DNA from: an uncultured cyanobacterium
GTDB taxonomy: Bacteria; Cyanobacteriota; Cyanobacteriia; Cyanobacteriales; CAWUOF01
Reading direction: 5' to 3'
Assembly: GCA_963744145.1 (NCBI GenBank)
Contig: CAVUSO010000001.1
Location: 2,496,001 to 2,560,000 of the forward strand
DNA: 64,000 bases
Shown here in pieces: positions 13,348 to 22,973 of the stretch (its first letter is position 1; the number at the start of each line of letters is the position of its first letter). The notes below the pieces were generated by a model. It was not told the DNA's origin. It ran no database searches and saw only the letters and a list, made by a program, of their open reading frames with translations. Position numbers and translations under genes: made by a program.

Positions 13348-14076
13348 ATGACTCGACCAACATCAGGAATCCAACTCTATCTCCAAAGATTAGCAGCATT
13401 AAATGCTAGTGATATTTATACTCGTTTACCTAATGATAGCTTTGCATTAGATTGGTTAAACACTAATAAAGAACCTCCGACTTATCAAGAATGGATTAAT
13501 TTATTAACAAAGGAAGCTCACGCGATCTCCAAATTACAAGATGATCAGCGTCTGATCATCTTGCTGGGGGATTCGATCAGCTTGTGGTTTCCTCCCGATT
13601 TACTCCCCACCCAGCGGTTATGGTTAAATCAAGGAATTTCTGGAGATACAATAGCAGGTATTCTGAGAAGGTTATCAGTTTTTGACCAAACTAGACCAAA
13701 TGCAATTTATATTCTCGCTGGTGTTAATGATCTAAAAAATTGTGTCAGCGATCGCACGATTCTCAAGAATTACCGCGAATGTTTGCTCAAATTACACCAC
13801 AATCATCCGCAAACTCAACTAATTGTGCAATCAATTTTACCAACAGATTTACCTAGTCAGATTTTAACGATGAAAATTCCTAATAGTAGAATTAATCAGC
13901 TTAATCAACAGCTAAGAGAATTAGCGAATCAAGAAAATGCTAGCTATTTGGAACTTCATTCTCACTTTCTAGATCAAGCAGGTAAATTAAAACCAGAACT
14001 AACTACAGATGGACTTCATCTTAATTATCAAGGATATAAAATTTGGCAATGGATTTTAGCACAAACAGAATCGTGA
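13348..14076 (+). CDS. SGNH/GDSL hydrolase
   Basis: GDSI, NQGISGD, AGVND and DGLH blocks. Confidence 0.88.
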   Translation: MTRPTSGIQLYLQRLAALNASDIYTRLPNDSFALDWLNTNKEPPTYQEWINLLTKEAHAISKLQDDQRLIILLGDSISLWFPPDLLPTQRLWLNQGISGDTIAGILRRLSVFDQTRPNAIYILAGVNDLKNCVSDRTILKNYRECLLKLHHNHPQTQLIVQSILPTDLPSQILTMKIPNSRINQLNQQLRELANQENASYLELHSHFLDQAGKLKPELTTDGLHLNYQGYKIWQWILAQTES

Positions 14077-14294
14077 TCAAAAACAATCTAAGTTCTCCTG
14101 TTTTAGTTGTTAATCAAACTATTGATATTCCGACCCAGTTAAGTTAAAGAAAATCTATTTCGGTTCCAAGTTAATCGGTACATCTTTTTAGCCCAATTCC
14201 TCGCGAGTTAGCGATCGCCCATTTTCTAGTTTGGGGGTGGATAAGTCCTCGTCCCAACTCCTTTTCACCAAAATGTTAAGTTTTGTTAAGCAAG

Positions 14295-14313
14295 TGAGGG
14301 GTATCACCCCTCA
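14295..14313. promoter_or_regulatory. HetR-type inverted repeat, copy 1
   Basis: TGAGGGGTATCACCCCTCA; same arms as the hetP HetR site GAGGGGTCTAACCCCTC as recalled (GGG-N5-CCC core); TATATT -10 at 14319-14324. Confidence 0.7.
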
Positions 14314-14332
14314 TAGGGTATATTACTAATAT

Positions 14333-14377
14333 GTAGATGCACCCTGATGGACACGCCCAGTTTTTTGGGCGTTTTTT
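14333..14377 (+). ncRNA. NsiR1-like small RNA, copy 1 (~45 nt)
   Basis: -10 box, then GTAGATGCACCCTGATG, then terminator ACGCCCA-GTTTTT-TGGGCGT-TTTTT; duplicated at 14498. Confidence 0.65.
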
Positions 14378-14455
14378 ATTTTTGGGGCATAAATATCTAG
14401 TTAATCTTGATCTTAAGTCCCACTGATGGCAATATGTAAATTTTTGTGAATCAGT

Positions 14456-14476
14456 ATGAGGGGTTTCACCCCTCAT
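14456..14476. promoter_or_regulatory. HetR-type inverted repeat, copy 2
   Basis: ATGAGGGGTTTCACCCCTCAT with perfect 9-bp arms; extended -10 TGcTATAGT at 14479-14487. Confidence 0.7.
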
Positions 14477-14497
14477 CATGCTATAGTAAATATCAAT

Positions 14498-14542
14498 GTA
14501 GATGCACCCTGATGAACACGCCCCGATTTGTGGGCGTTTTTT
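14498..14542 (+). ncRNA. NsiR1-like small RNA, copy 2 (~45 nt)
   Basis: GTAGATGCACCCTGATG identical to copy 1; terminator ACGCCC-CGATTTGT-GGGCGT-TTTTT with conserved stem and changed loop. Confidence 0.65.
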
Positions 14543-14783
14543 GTTTTTGGGGTATAAATAATGTATTCAGCCATTAATTAAGAGGGACATACTTGGACTT
14601 TGGGGACTGAGTTAGTCGAAGTAATCAAAATCTGGAAGTATAAAGTAAAATAAGATTGCCCACATAATTTTTGGATTTTCTGGCTGATTGAGAGCAAATA
14701 TGCCAAAAAATAAGGTAGTTTGGAGCGTTCAGATCGTCCAATTAAAGGAATCTGCTGAAAATTAGGTCGGGAAATTGTCAAGC

Positions 14784-15623
14784 ATGATCAAGCAAATTAG
14801 TCAAACACCCATCAGTTTCTTTGCTGGTGCCACCTATCCCTGTCAAGCTTTCGTCATTCTTAGTAGTAACCCCCGTCTTTGGGGCTATGTCATCCTGCCC
14901 ATTTTAGTAAATCTAGTGGTTGGGATTGGTCTTTATGTCGCTTTGCTATTTCCGAGCTTGGCTGGAATTGATACTCTAGTTGTCAATTTAGAGGTTAAAA
15001 TCAATAACTTAATCACTGGTCTACCTGCTTGGTTAATGCTCTTCGACTATTTGGCCGTAGGATTAGGTTGGTTGTTAAGATTAATTTTAGTGACTGGGTT
15101 ATTATTAGCGATCGGTTTTTTGTTAGTCCAATTTGGGGTAGTGTTGGGGGCTCATTGGTATGGTCAACTGTCTGAGCAACTGGAAGAAATTCGCACTGGT
15201 AAACTGCCAAAAATACCATCAAATAGTATTAAGGCAATTTTTGAAGATCTGAGTAGAGCGTTGTCATTTGAGGTAAAAAAATTACTGCTCGGCCTGCAAA
15301 TTGGGATACCATTACTATTAATCAATTTCCTGCCTGGACTTGGTTCGGCGATCGCGAGTATTGGTGGAGTTATTTTAGGTGCAACGTTGATTTGTCTAGA
15401 TTTTTTAGATGCTCCTTTAGAAAGACGAAGGCTAGAATTTCGGGAAAAATTAAAGATGATTCGTCAGAGTTTACCAGCTAGTGCCAGTTTTGGTTTAGTT
15501 TGTCTAGGTTTAAATAGTATTCCGATTCTAAATTTACTCACCATTCCTTTATGTGTAGCTGCCGGGACGTTGTTTTTTTGCGATCGCATTGCGCCAATTG
15601 TTGATGATCCGACCAGTAAATAA
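14784..15623 (+). CDS. EI24/CysZ-like membrane protein
   Basis: Multiple TM helices; WYGQLSEQLE and CLDFLDAPLERRRL motifs of cyanobacterial EI24-domain proteins. Confidence 0.75.
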   Translation: MIKQISQTPISFFAGATYPCQAFVILSSNPRLWGYVILPILVNLVVGIGLYVALLFPSLAGIDTLVVNLEVKINNLITGLPAWLMLFDYLAVGLGWLLRLILVTGLLLAIGFLLVQFGVVLGAHWYGQLSEQLEEIRTGKLPKIPSNSIKAIFEDLSRALSFEVKKLLLGLQIGIPLLLINFLPGLGSAIASIGGVILGATLICLDFLDAPLERRRLEFREKLKMIRQSLPASASFGLVCLGLNSIPILNLLTIPLCVAAGTLFFCDRIAPIVDDPTSK

Positions 15624-16040: not shown

Positions 16041-19000
16041 GTGAGCAAAATGCAGAGGTTAATAACAGCATTATTAAGAATATTATCTACAGAAATTACA
16101 TTCTTTAAAAGCAATAAAGGTAATACTAATATTAGTAATCCGGCTGATCCAATTCCTGTTATTAATCAGAATCAGGATAATTCTTCAAACACTAATACTA
16201 ATATTAGTAAGCCTGCCGATCCAATTCCTGTTATTAATCAGAATCAGGATGATTCTTCAAAGTCTTCATCGGTTCAGCCAACTATCTCTAGTGGGGTGAA
16301 TAGCAATTATCAAATCCAACAGGAAATCTACGAGGGAGTGAAAATTGCCTATCCGCAAATCAGTCAGTTAGGTAATGACCAGATTGAGCAGAAGATTAAT
16401 ACTTTAATCAAGAAGGATGCTTTAAGTGTATTAGATGGGTATCAAGGGAATTTACACCAGCTCATATTAGATTTAAAGTATGAAGTGAAATACCAAGGTA
16501 GTGATTTTTTAAGTATCAAGTATTTAGGTTTTGCTTCTAAAAAAGGAGCCGCCTATCTCAGTAATGTGATTTACACGACCACGATTGATTTATCCCAGCA
16601 AAAGGTGGTAGCATTAAAGGAATTAGTCACAGTAGATGACAATTTTGTTGAGAAATTCAATGCTGGAAAATATGTCCCTTATAGCGCCTCATCAGATTTA
16701 CAAACTCAAGCAATTCTAGAACGTGCTAAGGGGGAAAGTAATCAGTCGATTAAAGAAAGGTTGAATGATGAGCAGGCTAAGTATTATTTGACAGGAAATT
16801 CTCTCGTAGTTAGTAGTGAGGTGATCCATGCCCTCGGAGATCACTTTGAACTAGAATTAGATTATCCAGTGACTCCATCGGTTCAATCAACTGTCGCCGG
16901 TACCCTCAATAGTAATTATCAAATCCAACAGGAAATCTATGAGGGAGTGAAAATTGCCTATCCGCAAATCAGTCAGTTAGGTAATGACCAGATTGAGCAG
17001 AAGATTAATACTTTAATCAAGAAGGATGCTTTAAGTGTATTAGATGGGTATCAAGGGAATTTACACCAGCTCATATTAGATTTAAAGTATGAAGTGAAAT
17101 ATCAGGGTAGTGATTTTTTAAGTATCAAGTATTTAGGTTTTGCTTCTAAAAAAGGAGCAGCTTATCTCAGTAATGTGATTTACACGACCACGATTGATTT
17201 AGCCCAGCAAAAGGTGGTAGCATTAAAGGAATTAGTCACGGTAGATGACAATTTTGTCGAGAAATTCAATGGGGGGAAATATGTCCCTTATAGCGCATCG
17301 TCGGATTTACAAACTCAAGCAATCCTAGAGCGTGCTAAGACGGAAAGTAATCAGTCGATTAAAGAAAGGTTTAATAATGATCAGGCTAAGTATTATCTGA
17401 CGGGAAGTTCTCTCGTAGTTAGTAGTGAGGTGATCCATGCACTTGGGGATCACTTTGAACTAGAATTGGATTATCCTGTGATTCCATCGGTTCAACCAAC
17501 TGTCGCCGGTACCCTCAATAGTAATTATCAAATCCAACAGGAAATCTATGAGGGAGTGAAAATTGCCTATCCGCAAATCAGTCAGTTAGGTAATGACCAG
17601 ATTGAGCAGAAGATTAATACTTTAATCAAGAAGGATGCTTTAAGTGTATTAGATGGGTATCAAGGGAATTTACACCAGCTCATATTAGATTTAAAGTATG
17701 AAGTGAAATATCAAGGTAGTGATTTTTTAAGTATCAAGTATTTAGGCTTTGCTTCTAAAAAAGGAGCAGCTTATCTGAGTAATGTGATTTACACTACCAC
17801 GATTGATTTAGCCCAGCAAAAGGTGGTAGCATTAAAGGAATTAGTCACAGTAGATGACAATTTTGTCGAGAAATTCAATGGGGGGAAATATGTCCCTTAT
17901 AGTGCATCGTCGGATTTACAAACTCAAGCAATCCTAGAGCGTGCTAAGACTGAAAGTAATCAGTCGATTAAAGAAAGGTTGAATAATGATCAGGCTAAGT
18001 ATTATCTGACGGGAAATTCGCTCGTAGTCAGTAGTGAGGTGATCCACGCTCTGGGAGATCACTTTGAACTAGAATTAGATTATCCAGTGACTCCATCTGT
18101 TCAACCAACTGTCACCGGTCCACTCAATAGTAATTATCAAATCCAACAGGAAATTTATGAGGGAGTGAAAATTGCCTATCCGCAAATTAGCCAGTTAGGT
18201 AATGACCAGATTGAGCAAAAGATTAATACTTTAATCAAGAAGGATGCTTTAAGTGTATTAGATGGATATCAAGGGAATTTACACCATCTCATATTAGATT
18301 TAAAGTATGAAGTGAAATACCAAGGTAGTGACTTCTTAAGTATCAAATATGTAGGTTTTGCTTCTAAAAAAGGAGCAGCTTATCTCAGTAATGTGATTTA
18401 CACCACCACAATTGATTTAGCCCAGCAAAAGGTGGTAGCATTAAAGGAATTAGTCACGGTAGATGACAATTTTGTCGAGAAATTCAATGGGGGGAAATAT
18501 GTCCCTTATAGTGCATCGTCGGATTTACAAACTCAAGCAATTCTAGAGCGTGCTAAGACGGAAAGTAATCAGTCGATTAAAGAAAGGTTGAATAATGATC
18601 AGGCTAAGTATTATCTGACGGGAAGTTCTCTCGTAGTTAGTAGTGAGGTGATCCATGCCCTCGGAGATCACTTTGAACTAGAATTAGATTATCCAGTGGC
18701 TCCATCCGTTCAACCAACTGTCACCGGTCCACTCAATAGTAATTATCAAATCCAACAGGAAATCTATGAGGGAGTGAAAATTGCTTATCCGCAAATTAGT
18801 CAGTTAGGTAATGACCAGATTGAGCAGAAGATTAATACTTTAATCAAGAAGGATGCTTTAAGTGTATTAGATGGGTATCAAGGGAATTTACACCAGCTCA
18901 TATTAGATTTAAAGTATGAAGTGAAATATCAAGGTAGTGACTTTTTAAGCATTAAGTATTTAGGTTTTGCTTCTAAAAAAGGAGCAGCTTATCTCAGTAA

Positions 19001-22000
19001 TGTGATTTACACCACCACGATTGATTTAGCCCAGCAAAAGGTGGTAGCATTAAAGGAATTAGTCACGGTAGATGACAATTTTGTCGAGAAATTCAATGGG
19101 GGGAAATATGTCCCTTATAGTGCATCGTCGGATTTACAAACTCAAGCAATTCTAGAACGTGCTAAAGCAGAAAGTAATCAGTCGATTAAAGAAAGGTTGA
19201 ATGATGAGCAAGCTAAGTATTATCTGACGGGAAATTCTCTCGTAGTTAGTAGTGAGGTGATCCATGCTCTGGGAGATCACTTTGAACTAGAATTAGATTA
19301 TCCAGTGGCTCCATCCGTTCAACCAACTGTCACCGGTCCACTCAATAGTAATTATCAAATCCAACAGGAAATCTATGAGGGAGTGAAAATTGCTTATCCG
19401 CAAATTAGTCAGTTAGGTAATGACCAGATTGAGCAGAAGATTAATACTTTAATCAAGAAGGATGCTTTAAGTGTATTAGATGGGTATCAAGGGAATTTAC
19501 ACCATCTCATATTAGATTTAAAGTATGAAGTGAAATATCAAGGTAGTGACTTTTTAAGTATCAAGTATTTAGGTTTTGCTTCTAAAAAAGGAGCAGCTTA
19601 TCTCAGTAATGTGATTTACACTACCACGATTGATTTAGCCCAGCAAAAGGTGGTAGCTTTAAAGGAATTAGTCACGGTAGATGACAATTTTGTCGAGAAA
19701 TTCAATGGGGGGAAATATGTCCCTTATAGTGCATCGTCGGATTTACAAACTCAAGCAATTCTAGAACGTGCTAAAGCAGAAAGTAATCAGTCGATTAAAG
19801 AAAGGTTGAATGATGAGCATGCTAAGTATTATCTGACGGGAAATTCGCTCGTAGTTAGTAGTGAGGTGATCCACGCCCTCGGAGATCACTTTGAACTAGA
19901 ATTAGATTATCCAGTGACTCCATCTGTTCAACCAAGTGTCACCGGTCCACTCAATAGTAATTATCAAATCCAACAGGAAATTTATGAGGGAGTGAAAATT
20001 ACCTATCCGCAAATTAGCCAGTTAGGTAATGACCAGATTGAGCAAAAGATTAATACTTTAATCAAGAAGGATGCTTTAAGTGTATTAGATGGATATCATG
20101 GGAATTTACACCATCTCATATTAGATTTAAAGTATGAAGTGAAATACCAAGGTAGTGACTTCTTAAGTATTAAGTATTTAGGCTTTGCTTCTAAAAAAGG
20201 AGCCGCCTATCTGAGTAATGTAATTTACACTACCACGATTGATTTAGCCCAGCAAAAGGTGGTAGCATTAAAGGAATTAGTCACGGTAGATGACAATTTT
20301 GTCGAGAAATTCAATGCGGGGAAATATGTCCCTTATAGCGCCTCATCAGATTTACAAACTCAAGCAATTCTAGAGCGTGCTAAAGCAGAAAGTAATCAGT
20401 CGATTAAAGAAAGGTTGAATGATGAGCAAGCTAAGTATTATCTGACAGGAAATTCTCTCGTAGTTAGTAGTGAGGTGATCCATGCCCTGGGAGATCACTT
20501 TGAACTAGAATTAGATTATCCCGTGACTCCATCGGTTCAATCAACTGTCGCCGGTACCCTCAATAGTAATTATCAAATCCAACAGGAAATCTATGAGGGA
20601 GTGAAAATTGCCTATCCGCAAATTAGTCAGTTAGGTAATGACCAGCTTGAACGCAAGATTAATACTTTAATCAAGAAGGATGCTTTAAGTGTATTAGATG
20701 GGTATCAAGGGAATTTACACCAGCTCATATTAGATTTAAAGTATGAAGTGAAATATCAAGGTAGTGACTTTTTAAGCATCAAGTATTTAGGTTTTGCTTC
20801 TAAAAAAGGAGCCGCCTATCTGAGTAATGTGATTTACACTACCACGATTGATTTAGCCCAGCAAAAGGTGGTAGCTTTAAAGGAATTAGTCACGGTAGAT
20901 GATAATTTTGTTGAGAAATTCAATGGGGGGAAATATGTCCCTTATAGTGCCTCATCAGATTTACAAACTCAAGCAATTCTAGAGCGTGCTAAGGCGGAAA
21001 GTAATCAGTCGATTAAAGAAAGGTTTAATGATGATCAGGCTAAGTATTATCTGACGGGAAGTTCTCTCGTAGTTAGTAGTGAGGTGATCCATGCCCTCGG
21101 AGATCACTTTGAACTAGAATTGGATTATCCTGTGATTCCATCGGTTCAATCAACTGTTACCAGTACCCTCAATAGCAATTATCAAATCCAACAGGAAATC
21201 TACGAGGGAGTGAAAATTGCCTATCCGCAAATTAGTCAGTTAGGTAATGACCAGCTTGAACGCAAGATTAATACTTTAATCAAGAAGGATGCTTTAAGCA
21301 TATTAGATGGATATCAAGGGAATTTACACCAGCTCATATTAGATTTAAAGTATGAAGTGAAATACCAAGGTAGTGACTTTTTAAGTATCAAGTATTTAGG
21401 TTTTGCTTCTAAAAAAGGAGCCGCCTATCTCAGTAATGTGATTTACACCACCACGATTGATTTAGCCCAGCAAAAGGTGGTAGCATTAAAGGAATTAGTC
21501 ACGGTAGATGATAATTTTGTTGAGAAATTCAATGGGGGGAAATATGTCCCTTATAGCGCCTCATCAGATTTACAAACTCAAGCAATTCTAGAACGTGCTA
21601 AGGGGGAAAGTAATCAGTCGATTAAAGAAAGGTTGAATGATGAGCAGGCTAAGTATTATCTGACGGGAAATTCTCTCGTAGTTAGTAGTGAGGTGATCCA
21701 CGCCCTCGGAGATCACTTTGAACTAGAATTAGATTATCCAGTGGCTCCATCTGTTCAACCAACTGTCACCGGTCCACTCAATAGTAATTATCAAATCCAA
21801 CAGGAAATTTATGAGGGAGTGAAAATTGCCTATCCGCAAATTAGTCAGTTAGGTAATGACCAGCTTGAACGCAAGATTAATACTTTAATCAAGAAGGATG
21901 CTTTAAGTGTATTAGATGGATATCAAGGGAATTTACACCAGCTCATATTAGATTTAAAGTATGAAGTGAAATATCAGGGTAGTGACTTTTTAAGTATTAA

Positions 22001-22973
22001 GTATTTAGGCTTTGCTTCTAAAAAAGGAGCCGCCTATCTTAGCAATGTGATTTACACCACCACGATTGATTTAGCCCAGCAAAAGGTGGTAGCATTAAAG
22101 GAATTAGTCACGGTAGATGATAATTTTGTTGAGAAATTCAATGCTGGAAAATATGTCCCTTATAGCGCCTCATCAGATTTACAAACTCAAGCAATCTTAG
22201 AACGTGCTAAGGGGGAAAGTAATCAGTCGATTAAAGAAAGGTTGAATGATGAGCAAGCTAAGTATTATCTGACGGGAAATTCTCTCGTAGTCAGTAGTGA
22301 GGTGATCCACGCCCTCGGAGATCACTTTGAACTAGAATTGGATTATCCCGTGATTCCATCGGTTCAACCAACTGTCATCGGTACCCTCAATAGTAATTAT
22401 CAAATCCAACAGGAAATTTATGAGGGAGTGAAAATTGCCTATCCGCAAATTAGTCAGTTAGGTAATGACCAGCTTGAACGCAAGATTAATACTTTAATCA
22501 AGAAGGATGCTTTAAGCATATTAGATGGATATCAAGGGAATTTACACCAGCTCATATTAGATTTAAAGTATGAAGTGAAATATCAGGGTAGTGACTTTTT
22601 AAGTATTAAGTATTTAGGTTTTGCTTCTAAAAAAGGAGCCGCCTATCTCAGTAATGTGATTTACACCACCACGATTGATTTAGCCCAGCAAAAGGTGGTA
22701 GCATTAAAGGAATTAGTCACGGTAGATGACAATTTTGTCGAGAAATTCAATGGGGGGAAATATGTCCCTTATAGTGCATCATCGGATTTACAAACTCAAG
22801 CAATCCTAGAGCGTGCTAAAGCGGAAAGTAATCAGTCGATTAAAGAGAGGTTTAATGGTGATCAGGCTAAGTATTACTTGACAGGAAATTCTCTTGTGGT
22901 TAGTAATGAGGTAATCCATGCACTTGGGGATCACTTTGAACTAGAGTTGGACTATCCGGTTGTAAAAAAATAG
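16041..22973 (+). CDS. Giant 2310-aa protein of 11 tandem DUF4163/DUF3298 (PdaC/RsiV-like) modules
   Basis: Uninterrupted ORF; unit IxYPQI...KINTLIK...YEVKY...LSIKY...GAAY...TIDL...LKEL resembles DUF4163-type domains (recognition only). Confidence 0.75.
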   Translation: MSKMQRLITALLRILSTEITFFKSNKGNTNISNPADPIPVINQNQDNSSNTNTNISKPADPIPVINQNQDDSSKSSSVQPTISSGVNSNYQIQQEIYEGVKIAYPQISQLGNDQIEQKINTLIKKDALSVLDGYQGNLHQLILDLKYEVKYQGSDFLSIKYLGFASKKGAAYLSNVIYTTTIDLSQQKVVALKELVTVDDNFVEKFNAGKYVPYSASSDLQTQAILERAKGESNQSIKERLNDEQAKYYLTGNSLVVSSEVIHALGDHFELELDYPVTPSVQSTVAGTLNSNYQIQQEIYEGVKIAYPQISQLGNDQIEQKINTLIKKDALSVLDGYQGNLHQLILDLKYEVKYQGSDFLSIKYLGFASKKGAAYLSNVIYTTTIDLAQQKVVALKELVTVDDNFVEKFNGGKYVPYSASSDLQTQAILERAKTESNQSIKERFNNDQAKYYLTGSSLVVSSEVIHALGDHFELELDYPVIPSVQPTVAGTLNSNYQIQQEIYEGVKIAYPQISQLGNDQIEQKINTLIKKDALSVLDGYQGNLHQLILDLKYEVKYQGSDFLSIKYLGFASKKGAAYLSNVIYTTTIDLAQQKVVALKELVTVDDNFVEKFNGGKYVPYSASSDLQTQAILERAKTESNQSIKERLNNDQAKYYLTGNSLVVSSEVIHALGDHFELELDYPVTPSVQPTVTGPLNSNYQIQQEIYEGVKIAYPQISQLGNDQIEQKINTLIKKDALSVLDGYQGNLHHLILDLKYEVKYQGSDFLSIKYVGFASKKGAAYLSNVIYTTTIDLAQQKVVALKELVTVDDNFVEKFNGGKYVPYSASSDLQTQAILERAKTESNQSIKERLNNDQAKYYLTGSSLVVSSEVIHALGDHFELELDYPVAPSVQPTVTGPLNSNYQIQQEIYEGVKIAYPQISQLGNDQIEQKINTLIKKDALSVLDGYQGNLHQLILDLKYEVKYQGSDFLSIKYLGFASKKGAAYLSNVIYTTTIDLAQQKVVALKELVTVDDNFVEKFNGGKYVPYSASSDLQTQAILERAKAESNQSIKERLNDEQAKYYLTGNSLVVSSEVIHALGDHFELELDYPVAPSVQPTVTGPLNSNYQIQQEIYEGVKIAYPQISQLGNDQIEQKINTLIKKDALSVLDGYQGNLHHLILDLKYEVKYQGSDFLSIKYLGFASKKGAAYLSNVIYTTTIDLAQQKVVALKELVTVDDNFVEKFNGGKYVPYSASSDLQTQAILERAKAESNQSIKERLNDEHAKYYLTGNSLVVSSEVIHALGDHFELELDYPVTPSVQPSVTGPLNSNYQIQQEIYEGVKITYPQISQLGNDQIEQKINTLIKKDALSVLDGYHGNLHHLILDLKYEVKYQGSDFLSIKYLGFASKKGAAYLSNVIYTTTIDLAQQKVVALKELVTVDDNFVEKFNAGKYVPYSASSDLQTQAILERAKAESNQSIKERLNDEQAKYYLTGNSLVVSSEVIHALGDHFELELDYPVTPSVQSTVAGTLNSNYQIQQEIYEGVKIAYPQISQLGNDQLERKINTLIKKDALSVLDGYQGNLHQLILDLKYEVKYQGSDFLSIKYLGFASKKGAAYLSNVIYTTTIDLAQQKVVALKELVTVDDNFVEKFNGGKYVPYSASSDLQTQAILERAKAESNQSIKERFNDDQAKYYLTGSSLVVSSEVIHALGDHFELELDYPVIPSVQSTVTSTLNSNYQIQQEIYEGVKIAYPQISQLGNDQLERKINTLIKKDALSILDGYQGNLHQLILDLKYEVKYQGSDFLSIKYLGFASKKGAAYLSNVIYTTTIDLAQQKVVALKELVTVDDNFVEKFNGGKYVPYSASSDLQTQAILERAKGESNQSIKERLNDEQAKYYLTGNSLVVSSEVIHALGDHFELELDYPVAPSVQPTVTGPLNSNYQIQQEIYEGVKIAYPQISQLGNDQLERKINTLIKKDALSVLDGYQGNLHQLILDLKYEVKYQGSDFLSIKYLGFASKKGAAYLSNVIYTTTIDLAQQKVVALKELVTVDDNFVEKFNAGKYVPYSASSDLQTQAILERAKGESNQSIKERLNDEQAKYYLTGNSLVVSSEVIHALGDHFELELDYPVIPSVQPTVIGTLNSNYQIQQEIYEGVKIAYPQISQLGNDQLERKINTLIKKDALSILDGYQGNLHQLILDLKYEVKYQGSDFLSIKYLGFASKKGAAYLSNVIYTTTIDLAQQKVVALKELVTVDDNFVEKFNGGKYVPYSASSDLQTQAILERAKAESNQSIKERFNGDQAKYYLTGNSLVVSNEVIHALGDHFELELDYPVVKK
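16121..16262 (+). repeat. 72-bp direct repeat x2 (24 aa)
   Basis: NTNISxPADPIPVINQNQDxSS twice; DNA copies start at 16121 and 16193. Confidence 0.9.
16299..22961 (+). repeat. 11 x 609-bp intragenic tandem repeat
   Basis: AATAGYAATTATCAAATCCAACAGG recurs at exact 609-bp spacing from 16299 to 22389. Confidence 0.98.

Follow-up and report, generated by a model that had tools for sequence, protein, structure and literature searches.

The best characterised binding site of the cell-differentiation regulator HetR, 5'-GAGGGGTCTAACCCCTC-3', lies in the hetP promoter of Anabaena/Nostoc PCC 7120. The minimal pattern that HetR requires is GGG-N5-CCC, as judged from crystal structures; in the consensus obtained by chromatin immunoprecipitation and sequencing (ChIP-seq), an A is also conserved two bases ahead of the GGG (PMC4192349). 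HetR activates the promoters PhetZ and PhetP via HetR-binding sites, even in Escherichia coli, and HetZ is itself a sigma factor, with the DIF1 motif read as its -35 element (PMC13342950). NsiR1, the heterocyst-specific small RNA (sRNA) of Nostoc PCC 7120, has been described in heterocyst formers, with a DIF1 promoter and next to hetF (PMC6596454, PMC4030482, PMC9045159). In Nostoc it is HetR-dependent (PMC9045159, PMC4030482), and the NsiR1 reads given for 8 h in Table S3 of PMC4734099 number 30 in the wild type and none in hetR. Since HetZ reads DIF1 and HetR activates PhetZ, this dependence runs via sigma-HetZ. The role of HetR and PatX in filaments that never form heterocysts was called 'a mystery' in section 3.3 of PMC11298460. 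Described here is a stretch of 64,000 nucleotides (nt) from an uncultured cyanobacterium, hereafter the window (positions 2,496,001 to 2,560,000 of contig CAVUSO010000001.1, assembly GCA_963744145.1), in which two tandem genes for NsiR1-like sRNAs are each preceded by a palindrome with the arms of the hetP site.

The two inverted repeats, read as strandless features and recovered both by inspection of the sequence and by a pattern search, are located at 14296-14312 (GAGGGGTATCACCCCTC; GAGGGGT-ATC-ACCCCTC) and 14458-14474 (GAGGGGTTTCACCCCTC; GAGGGGT-TTC-ACCCCTC). Their sequences and positions are those given in an initial annotation of this DNA, which had also described conserved arms about a variable spacer and had linked them to the HetR site of the hetP promoter. 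Indeed, the 7-nt arms are the same in both copies, the central triplet being ATC in one and TTC in the other, and they are identical to those of the site quoted in PMC4192349. That site is likewise a 17-bp inverted repeat in a genome with hetR and patX, but its centre is CTA. In both window copies the GGG occupies palindrome positions 4-6, the N5 positions 7-11, and the CCC positions 12-14, with an A at position 2; both satisfy GGG-N5-CCC with an A two bases ahead of the GGG. A search of the window for GAGGGGT-N3-ACCCCTC with up to two mismatches gave two matches versus 0.12 expected, and none of 100 shuffles yielded two or more. The genome scan proposed in the initial annotation was run over all 7,702,779 bases, and the window copies are the only perfect 17-mers; two further sites carry one mismatch, and the reversed control pattern gave one match per strand. 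The 13-nt core, GGGGT-N3-ACCCC, occurs eight times in the genome, and three of these occurrences precede NsiR1-like genes. Note that the two units, about 160 nt (161 nt) each, show a mean column identity of 86% when aligned, and this tandem duplication makes the two window sites one event rather than two.

The -10 box of copy 1, TATATT (14319..14324, plus strand), follows its palindrome by 6 nt and precedes GTAGATG by 8 nt. Copy 2 displays an extended -10 element, TGC-TATAGT (14479..14487, plus strand), with the hexamer at 14482-14487, 7 nt after the palindrome. The claimed distance of 6-7 bp between palindrome and -10 box is thus correct. From the -10 box to GTAGATGCACCCTGATG there are 8 nt in copy 1 and 10 nt in copy 2. 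With a 17-nt spacer assumed, the -35 slot coincides with the left arm of each palindrome, in keeping with its earlier placement over the -35 region. Counted from the predicted start, palindrome 1 extends over about -35 to -19 and so takes up both the -35 slot and the spacer, and the site centres in the window fall at about -27 to -32. The sRNA start positions are predicted from that of Nostoc NsiR1, the G of GTAGATG (Table S3 of PMC4734099). A consensus scan detected no sigma-70 -35/-10 promoter ahead of the sRNAs, and copy 1 contains neither a -35-like hexamer nor a TGn motif.

The sRNA genes themselves are positioned at 14331..14382 (gene 1) and 14495..14547 (gene 2), both on the plus strand. 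Each begins with the single-stranded 5' seed GUAGAUGCACCCUGAUG and ends with a U tail, and the terminator scan places intrinsic terminators, each with a T run, at 14353-14372 and 14518-14537. The predicted folds (-15.0 kcal/mol for gene 1 and -11.6 kcal/mol for gene 2) leave the 5' part unpaired ahead of the terminator. The conserved NsiR1 5' sequence GUAGAUGCACCCUGAU followed by a terminator hairpin is present in both, and the first 16 nt are those of the 5' end of Nostoc PCC 7120 NsiR1 (Table S3, PMC4734099). Matches to the Rfam model RF02399 extend over 14331-14379 (34.0 bits, E = 0.00031) and 14496-14544 (29.4 bits, E = 0.0043), and both lie below its gathering score of 39 bits. With Nostoc NsiR1 the window sRNAs share the 5' 16 nt, a length of ~50-60 nt, a free 5' end, a Rho-independent terminator, a multicopy arrangement, and a link to HetR. 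The terminator of the window sRNAs, ACGCCC...GGGCG, is unlike that of Nostoc NsiR1, and the promoter carries a HetR-type palindrome rather than the DIF1 sequence TCCGGA. Whereas Nostoc has 12 copies upstream of hetF, the window has two, flanked by a GDSL-lipase-like gene (13348-14076) on one side and by a CysZ/EI24-like gene (14775-15623) on the other. The neighbours are thus not hetF, a gene that was itself not searched for in the genome. Because of the score, the promoter, and the context, the window RNAs are best regarded as members of the NsiR1 family but not as full Rfam NsiR1 members. Within the host genome, perfect complementarity of at least 10 nt to the seed is found mainly in the sRNA genes themselves, and no target is claimed.

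About ten further NsiR1-like genes, scattered or in small clusters, are found elsewhere in the genome. Four copies score above the Rfam threshold (48.6, 45.7, 40.5, and 39.3 bits), all of them of the DIF1 type. In six copies of the genome the -35 slot holds TCCGGA or a one-base variant of it. Four others carry the palindrome in the -35 region, namely the two of the window, the copy at C1:1897251 between gatB and argJ, which has the exact 13-nt core, and the copy at C1:5239311, which has one core mismatch. TCCGGA is not present at -35 of the window copies, where the palindrome fills that slot. In both designs the -10 box lies 8 nt before GTAGATG (10 nt in window copy 2), and the content of the -35 region is the sole difference between them. 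Like the palindrome, the DIF1 element of sigma-HetZ promoters sits in the -35 slot, with TCCGGA at -35 to -30 (PMC13342950), and at the same distance between -10 box and GTAGATG. Both designs would appear to make an NsiR1-family sRNA part of the HetR circuit. Since DIF1 is read by a sigma factor as its -35 element, HetR acts on it indirectly, by way of hetZ, whereas at the palindrome, a site of the kind bound by a dimeric regulator, HetR would act directly. The window copies would then be wired to HetR directly, unlike Nostoc NsiR1 with its route via sigma-HetZ. The NsiR1 family identity and the DIF1-type siblings are points beyond the initial annotation. As a separate observation, small terminator-bearing elements with other bodies share part of the NsiR1 seed (TGCACCCTGAT... 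or GTAGATGCACCC...) at G000:C1:443895-443945, 3477175-3477220, 3479548-3479591, 5439943-5439986, 2180195-2180245, and 2186180-2186230. They have neither the palindrome nor a clear DIF1 motif and may represent additional sRNA families with a common seed, or else copies in decay.

The sample used to follow conservation comprised 401 genomes from 142 genera of the window's order. The module of palindrome, -10 box, and NsiR1 seed, searched for as GGGGT-N3-ACCCC-N18-40-GATGCACCC, is present in 184 of the 401 genomes and 70 of the 142 genera, and the reversed control in none. A hetR gene (PF03574) is found in 227 genomes. According to a hand cross-tabulation, 179 genomes have both module and hetR, five the module only, 48 hetR only, and 169 neither, a co-occurrence that is an association rather than proof, given that families are all-or-none and relatives are not independent. 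The five genomes with the module only (G009, G038, G231, G331, and G357) all belong to families with hetR-bearing members; three are 82-92% complete, G038 is 99% complete, and G231 97%. What is directly observed is thus the set of sequence features, how rare and how conserved they are, and that they co-occur with hetR. The pairing of site and sRNA is kept across many families and follows hetR. In a scan of named genomes, for which about 80 of at least 120 matching stretches were listed, the non-heterocystous carriers among the matches listed include Microcoleus, Symploca, Lyngbya, Coleofasciculus, Spirulina, Leptolyngbya, Phormidesmis, Nodosilinea, Okeania, Baaleninema, and others, and the heterocystous carriers are Dolichospermum, Anabaena, Rivularia, Richelia, and Iphinoe. 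Also among the matches listed are ~11 non-cyanobacterial records without the full seed, which look like chance.

DIF1 (TCCGGA) together with the NsiR1 seed is found in 225 of the 401 genomes, nearly the same set as that with hetR. The picture of two designs is therefore general, and NsiR1 is not confined to heterocyst formers. DIF1-seed matches occur as well in at least seven genomes of family f33 (G033, G062, G158, G174, G190, G222, and G236), in which no hetR (PF03574) match was found. The DIF1 and palindrome kinds coexist in the host genome and in five genomes of family f14. In other genomes, module loci lie downstream of ylqF and between gatB and argJ. Indeed, in family f14 (L061, L063, and L213) a single copy of the short class described below is always positioned just downstream of the ribosome-biogenesis GTPase gene ylqF, a position on which the idea that this copy is the hetP promoter was rejected. 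The long-class arrays of this family lie between gatB and argJ, the same place as the host copy at C1:1897251, and the common position points to an old, syntenic locus. For the palindromes of another genome, G168 (L211-L215), a 130-residue open reading frame (ORF) downstream of one of them gave no NCBIfam match.

The order-wide pattern forced the arms to match, and the window-type sRNA was thus searched for again by its RNA body alone. It was found in 75 of the 401 genomes. The upstream sequences were read for the 30 loci returned from 30 genomes, which contain 35 genes from at least five families. An exact palindrome core lies 35-40 nt before AGATG in 34 of the 35 genes, and the remaining one has a single mismatch; the DIF1 sequence TCCGGA precedes none of the 35. 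The window-type sRNA forms a lineage of its own. Twelve different central triplets occur among its genes, one relative (L247) carries the exact hetP core GGGGTCTAACCCCTC, and in 25 of 34 cases TAnnnT begins 9 nt after ACCCC. Arms that do not vary around a free centre, with no compensatory pairs, are more in line with a site for a protein than with an RNA helix.

As a whole, 168 distinct modules fall into two length classes. The short class, which includes the window copies, measures 45-50 nt from the first core G to the end of GATGCACCC; its terminator is ACGCCC...GGGCG, and its palindrome centre varies. The long class, with 127 modules after the seed filter, measures 51-54 nt and has the terminator GGGAGAG...CTCTCC. 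Its centre is GAC in 61 of the 127, which generates a -35-like GTGACA, and TGnTAnnnT is found in 55 of the 127. A third half-site, in the arrangement GGGGT-NN-GGGGT-N3-ACCCC, is seen in 22 of 34 short-class promoters (L222-L251), the window copies being without it, and the mirror arrangement GGGGT-N3-ACCCC-NN-ACCCC is seen in 55 of 127 long-class promoters (L031-L210). More than one HetR dimer may bind to such sites.

The initial annotation had called for hetR and patX in the genome, and both were located, the latter as a candidate. The host hetR product matches PF03574 with 266 bits (E = 3.9e-79) and the crystallised HetR (3qod/4izz/4j00/4j01) with 580 bits. Five differences separate its first ~103 aligned residues from those of Fischerella HetR in the DNA complexes 4izz, 4j00, and 4j01, and the DNA-binding domain is ~95% identical to that of the crystallised protein. 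Given a DNA-binding domain that is nearly unchanged, the same DNA specificity is expected. Directly upstream of hetR, on the same strand, lies a 107-residue ORF with a hydrophobic N-terminus and the sequence HRGSGR, and an exact TCCGGA is positioned 62-57 nt before its ATG (both genes at G000:C1:6242476-6244283, outside of the window; L005, L084). The features by which PatX is recognized reportedly stem in part from work of Elhai and Khudyakov in 2018. With these and the features given in PMC7761841, the predicted 107-residue product fits PatX. The layout of patX and hetR is the same as that shown for Leptolyngbya BL0902 in PMC11298460.

The genome also carries nifH, so that absence of nif cannot serve as evidence on heterocyst status. 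The host's GTDB family includes one other genome only in the order sample. Family f14 carries 145-nt DIF1 NsiR1 arrays typical of heterocyst formers and is probably a heterocyst-forming family; because the host's family differs from it, the host is probably a non-heterocystous diazotrophic filament. The hosts of the hetP and hetZ sites would differ from it in this respect. Moreover, the hetP and hetZ sites serve protein genes, whereas those of the window, predicted from sequence, would serve small RNA genes.

The palindromes are probably direct HetR operators, whichever the sign of regulation. From the observations above we infer HetR binding, the transcription start, the sign, and the targets. 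As to the sign, activation is slightly favored over repression. In the reading that we adopt, to which a probability of roughly 0.45 is assigned, HetR directly activates the NsiR1-family sRNA from an operator within the core promoter. A HetR dimer would bind to the palindrome and exert direct control rather than control via the downstream sigma factor HetZ. Placed on the left arm in the -35 slot, it would replace the missing -35 contact, with a good -10 box present. The sRNA would be made in HetR-active cells, and its level would fall when the PatX-derived RGSGR peptide frees HetR from the DNA. The RNA, of ~50 nt with a free 5' seed GUAGAUGCACCCUGAUG and a terminator, would pair with the 5' regions of mRNAs, like Nostoc NsiR1. 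There is a reasonable case, better than even, that this is a pre-heterocyst HetR-to-sRNA module of filamentous cyanobacteria in which one seed is fed both directly and via sigma-HetZ, the core promoter of the window-type lineage being built around the strongest type of HetR operator known. This sRNA would then belong to the direct HetR targets that are most widely retained in non-heterocystous filaments, and it may be an ancestral output of the patterning pair HetR and PatX.

Several observations weigh against activation, and repression is a somewhat less probable alternative. In that case HetR, bound to the same operator between the -35 slot and the -10 box, would block RNA polymerase, and the sRNA would be made where HetR is low or kept off the DNA by PatX/RGSGR peptide. 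In HetR-active cells it would be shut off, and sigma-HetZ would switch on its DIF1 siblings there. The site centre, which falls at -27 to -32 for the window copies and at ~-35 for long-class modules, is unlike that of hetZ in Nodularia, the one HetR-activated promoter on which this comparison rests, where the HetR region covers -56 to -17 and the GGG..CCC centre is at ~-45 (PMC3610870); the interval between -35 and -10 is more often the position of a repressor. An extended -10 element, which can function without a -35 element or an activator, is seen in copy 2 and in many relatives, and the long class, with GAC, and hence the -35-like GTGACA within the palindrome, in 61 of 127 modules and TGnTAnnnT in 55 of 127, looks like a self-sufficient promoter under an operator. 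HetR is also known to repress, as alr2242 is derepressed in a hetR mutant (PMC4192349), and it is said in PMC11298460 that HetR 'activates or inhibits'. Finally, the Nostoc 7120 sRNA table (Table S3 of PMC4734099) contains no palindrome-type HetR-dependent sRNA, the seed strings being found in the NsiR1 row and in one unrelated 340-nt row only, but that strain may have no such copy. On the other side, copy 1 has neither a -35-like hexamer nor TGn, and it is hard to see what would drive it without an activator. The strong palindromic HetR sites tested so far, those of hetP and hetZ, activate, as reported in PMC13342950. NsiR1 of Nostoc, moreover, depends positively on HetR. In addition, the distance from palindrome to -10 box varies by no more than 1-2 nt from family to family although the sequence in between drifts, which speaks for activation; simple occlusion needs no such spacing.

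Direct control by HetR of either sign must also be set against the unlikely case that the binder is a special sigma factor or a different dimeric regulator present in filamentous cyanobacteria, and that both the likeness to HetR sites and the co-occurrence with hetR reflect no more than shared ancestry of filamentous lineages. Here the 48 hetR-bearing genomes without the exact module pattern count against HetR, as does the fact that related genomes are non-independent samples: with families that have everything or nothing, the co-occurrence with hetR is confounded by phylogeny. The core-promoter position, unlike that of the hetZ site, fits such a binder as well, and the second conserved block upstream of the palindromes, described below, together with the third GGGGT half-site in 22 of 34 relatives, suggests a more complex assembly. 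Neither NsiR1 nor hetF is named in the main text of the ChIP-seq paper (PMC4192349). Three genomes with the sRNA but without the strict pattern (G005, G042, and G053) have six genes with degenerate sites, and the site of the sixth gene is nearly lost. The other five sites, however, are degenerate by one base and retain exactly the GGG-N5-CCC that the crystal structures require (PMC4192349). The 14 arm bases are identical to those of the best characterised HetR site, L247 has the exact hetP core, and the HetR DNA-binding domain is almost unchanged. We know of no factor other than HetR for this motif.

Two further explanations do not invoke a DNA-binding protein. It is most improbable that the repeat acts as RNA, transcribed from upstream as a 9-bp hairpin that would direct processing, stabilise the RNA, or belong to a longer precursor. 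The segments would fold stably as RNA (-14.9 and -14.2 kcal/mol), and a terminator-like hairpin at 14234-14255 indicates that some transcription may reach the region; yet a helix would allow paired changes, and none is seen: the loop differs among the genes, but the arms are unchanged in 34 of 35. There is no U tract after the repeat, on which ground a terminator was ruled out, and the distance from the repeat to the -10 box that follows it is fixed. The start of Nostoc NsiR1 at the G of GTAGATG (Table S3 of PMC4734099) and that of the Rfam model both fall after the palindrome. Least credible of all is a chance palindrome or a selfish repeat copied along with the sRNA gene. The units are indeed tandem duplicates, but the shuffles never gave two sites, the reversed control gave none order-wide, and the module occurs in 70 genera at different genomic places, such as downstream of ylqF and between gatB and argJ.

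NsiR1-like RNAs outside of heterocyst formers are not new, given the BLAST homologues in 11 non-heterocystous strains listed in Table S3 of PMC4734099 and the NsiR1-like RNA of Limnospira (PMC8400943). No published description of a HetR palindrome in NsiR1-type promoters was found, subscription papers aside (Ionescu 2010; Elhai and Khudyakov 2018; Brenes-Alvarez 2019, 2020). The sRNA promoter, with a perfect operator before a 50-nt RNA, is a concrete candidate for a direct target of HetR, with sharp definition and wide conservation, and it renders the role of HetR in non-heterocystous filaments testable. The picture of NsiR1 would change to that of a family present in nearly all hetR-bearing genomes of the order and served by two promoter designs, which fit the two-step cascade from HetR to sigma-HetZ reported in 2026 (PMC13342950). 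Should repression prove true, sibling sRNAs with one seed made in complementary cell states would constitute a new motif for one-dimensional patterning.

Upstream of each palindrome lies an AT-rich block, TGTTAAGTTTTGTTAAG for copy 1 (14274..14290, plus strand; sequence read) and TGTAAATTTTTGTGAAT for copy 2 (14435..14451, plus strand; sequence read and comparison with relatives). The block, TGTAAA(g/t)TTTT.T.AA(g), precedes the palindrome by 5-20 nt, both here and in most relatives (L222-L251). It bears a weak likeness to an NtcA site (GTA-N8-T.A), and its distance to the palindrome is variable. The terminator-like hairpin at 14234-14255, GGGGTGGATAAGTCCTCGTCCC with a T-rich tail, is located just upstream of copy 1 and may end the transcript of the upstream gene or be the remnant of a third sRNA copy. 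For positions 13900-14900 of the window no RNA run is listed, and one soil-metagenome DNA run contains part of this segment.

Elsewhere in the genome, the two one-mismatch palindromes (L003 and L004) were set aside as uninformative; they are located at the 3' end of a haemagglutinin-like gene and in the interval separating a 92-residue ORF from a hydrolase gene. Two near-perfect intergenic palindromes, GAGGGGT-N3-ACCCCCT, are found at G000:C1:1576398-1576414 and C1:3378222-3378238; one precedes an ORF for a 199-residue membrane protein and the other a 546-residue ORF, and HetR may have further targets in both. At G000:C1:5095500-5099500 there is a CRISPR-like array whose repeat measures 36 nt, and one of its spacers contains the 13-nt palindrome core by chance. 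Within the window, at 16041-22973, a 2310-residue ORF contains at least 11 PdaC-like repeats (Pfam PF13739, E = 7e-67), and its many weak matches to unrelated families suggest a highly repetitive protein.

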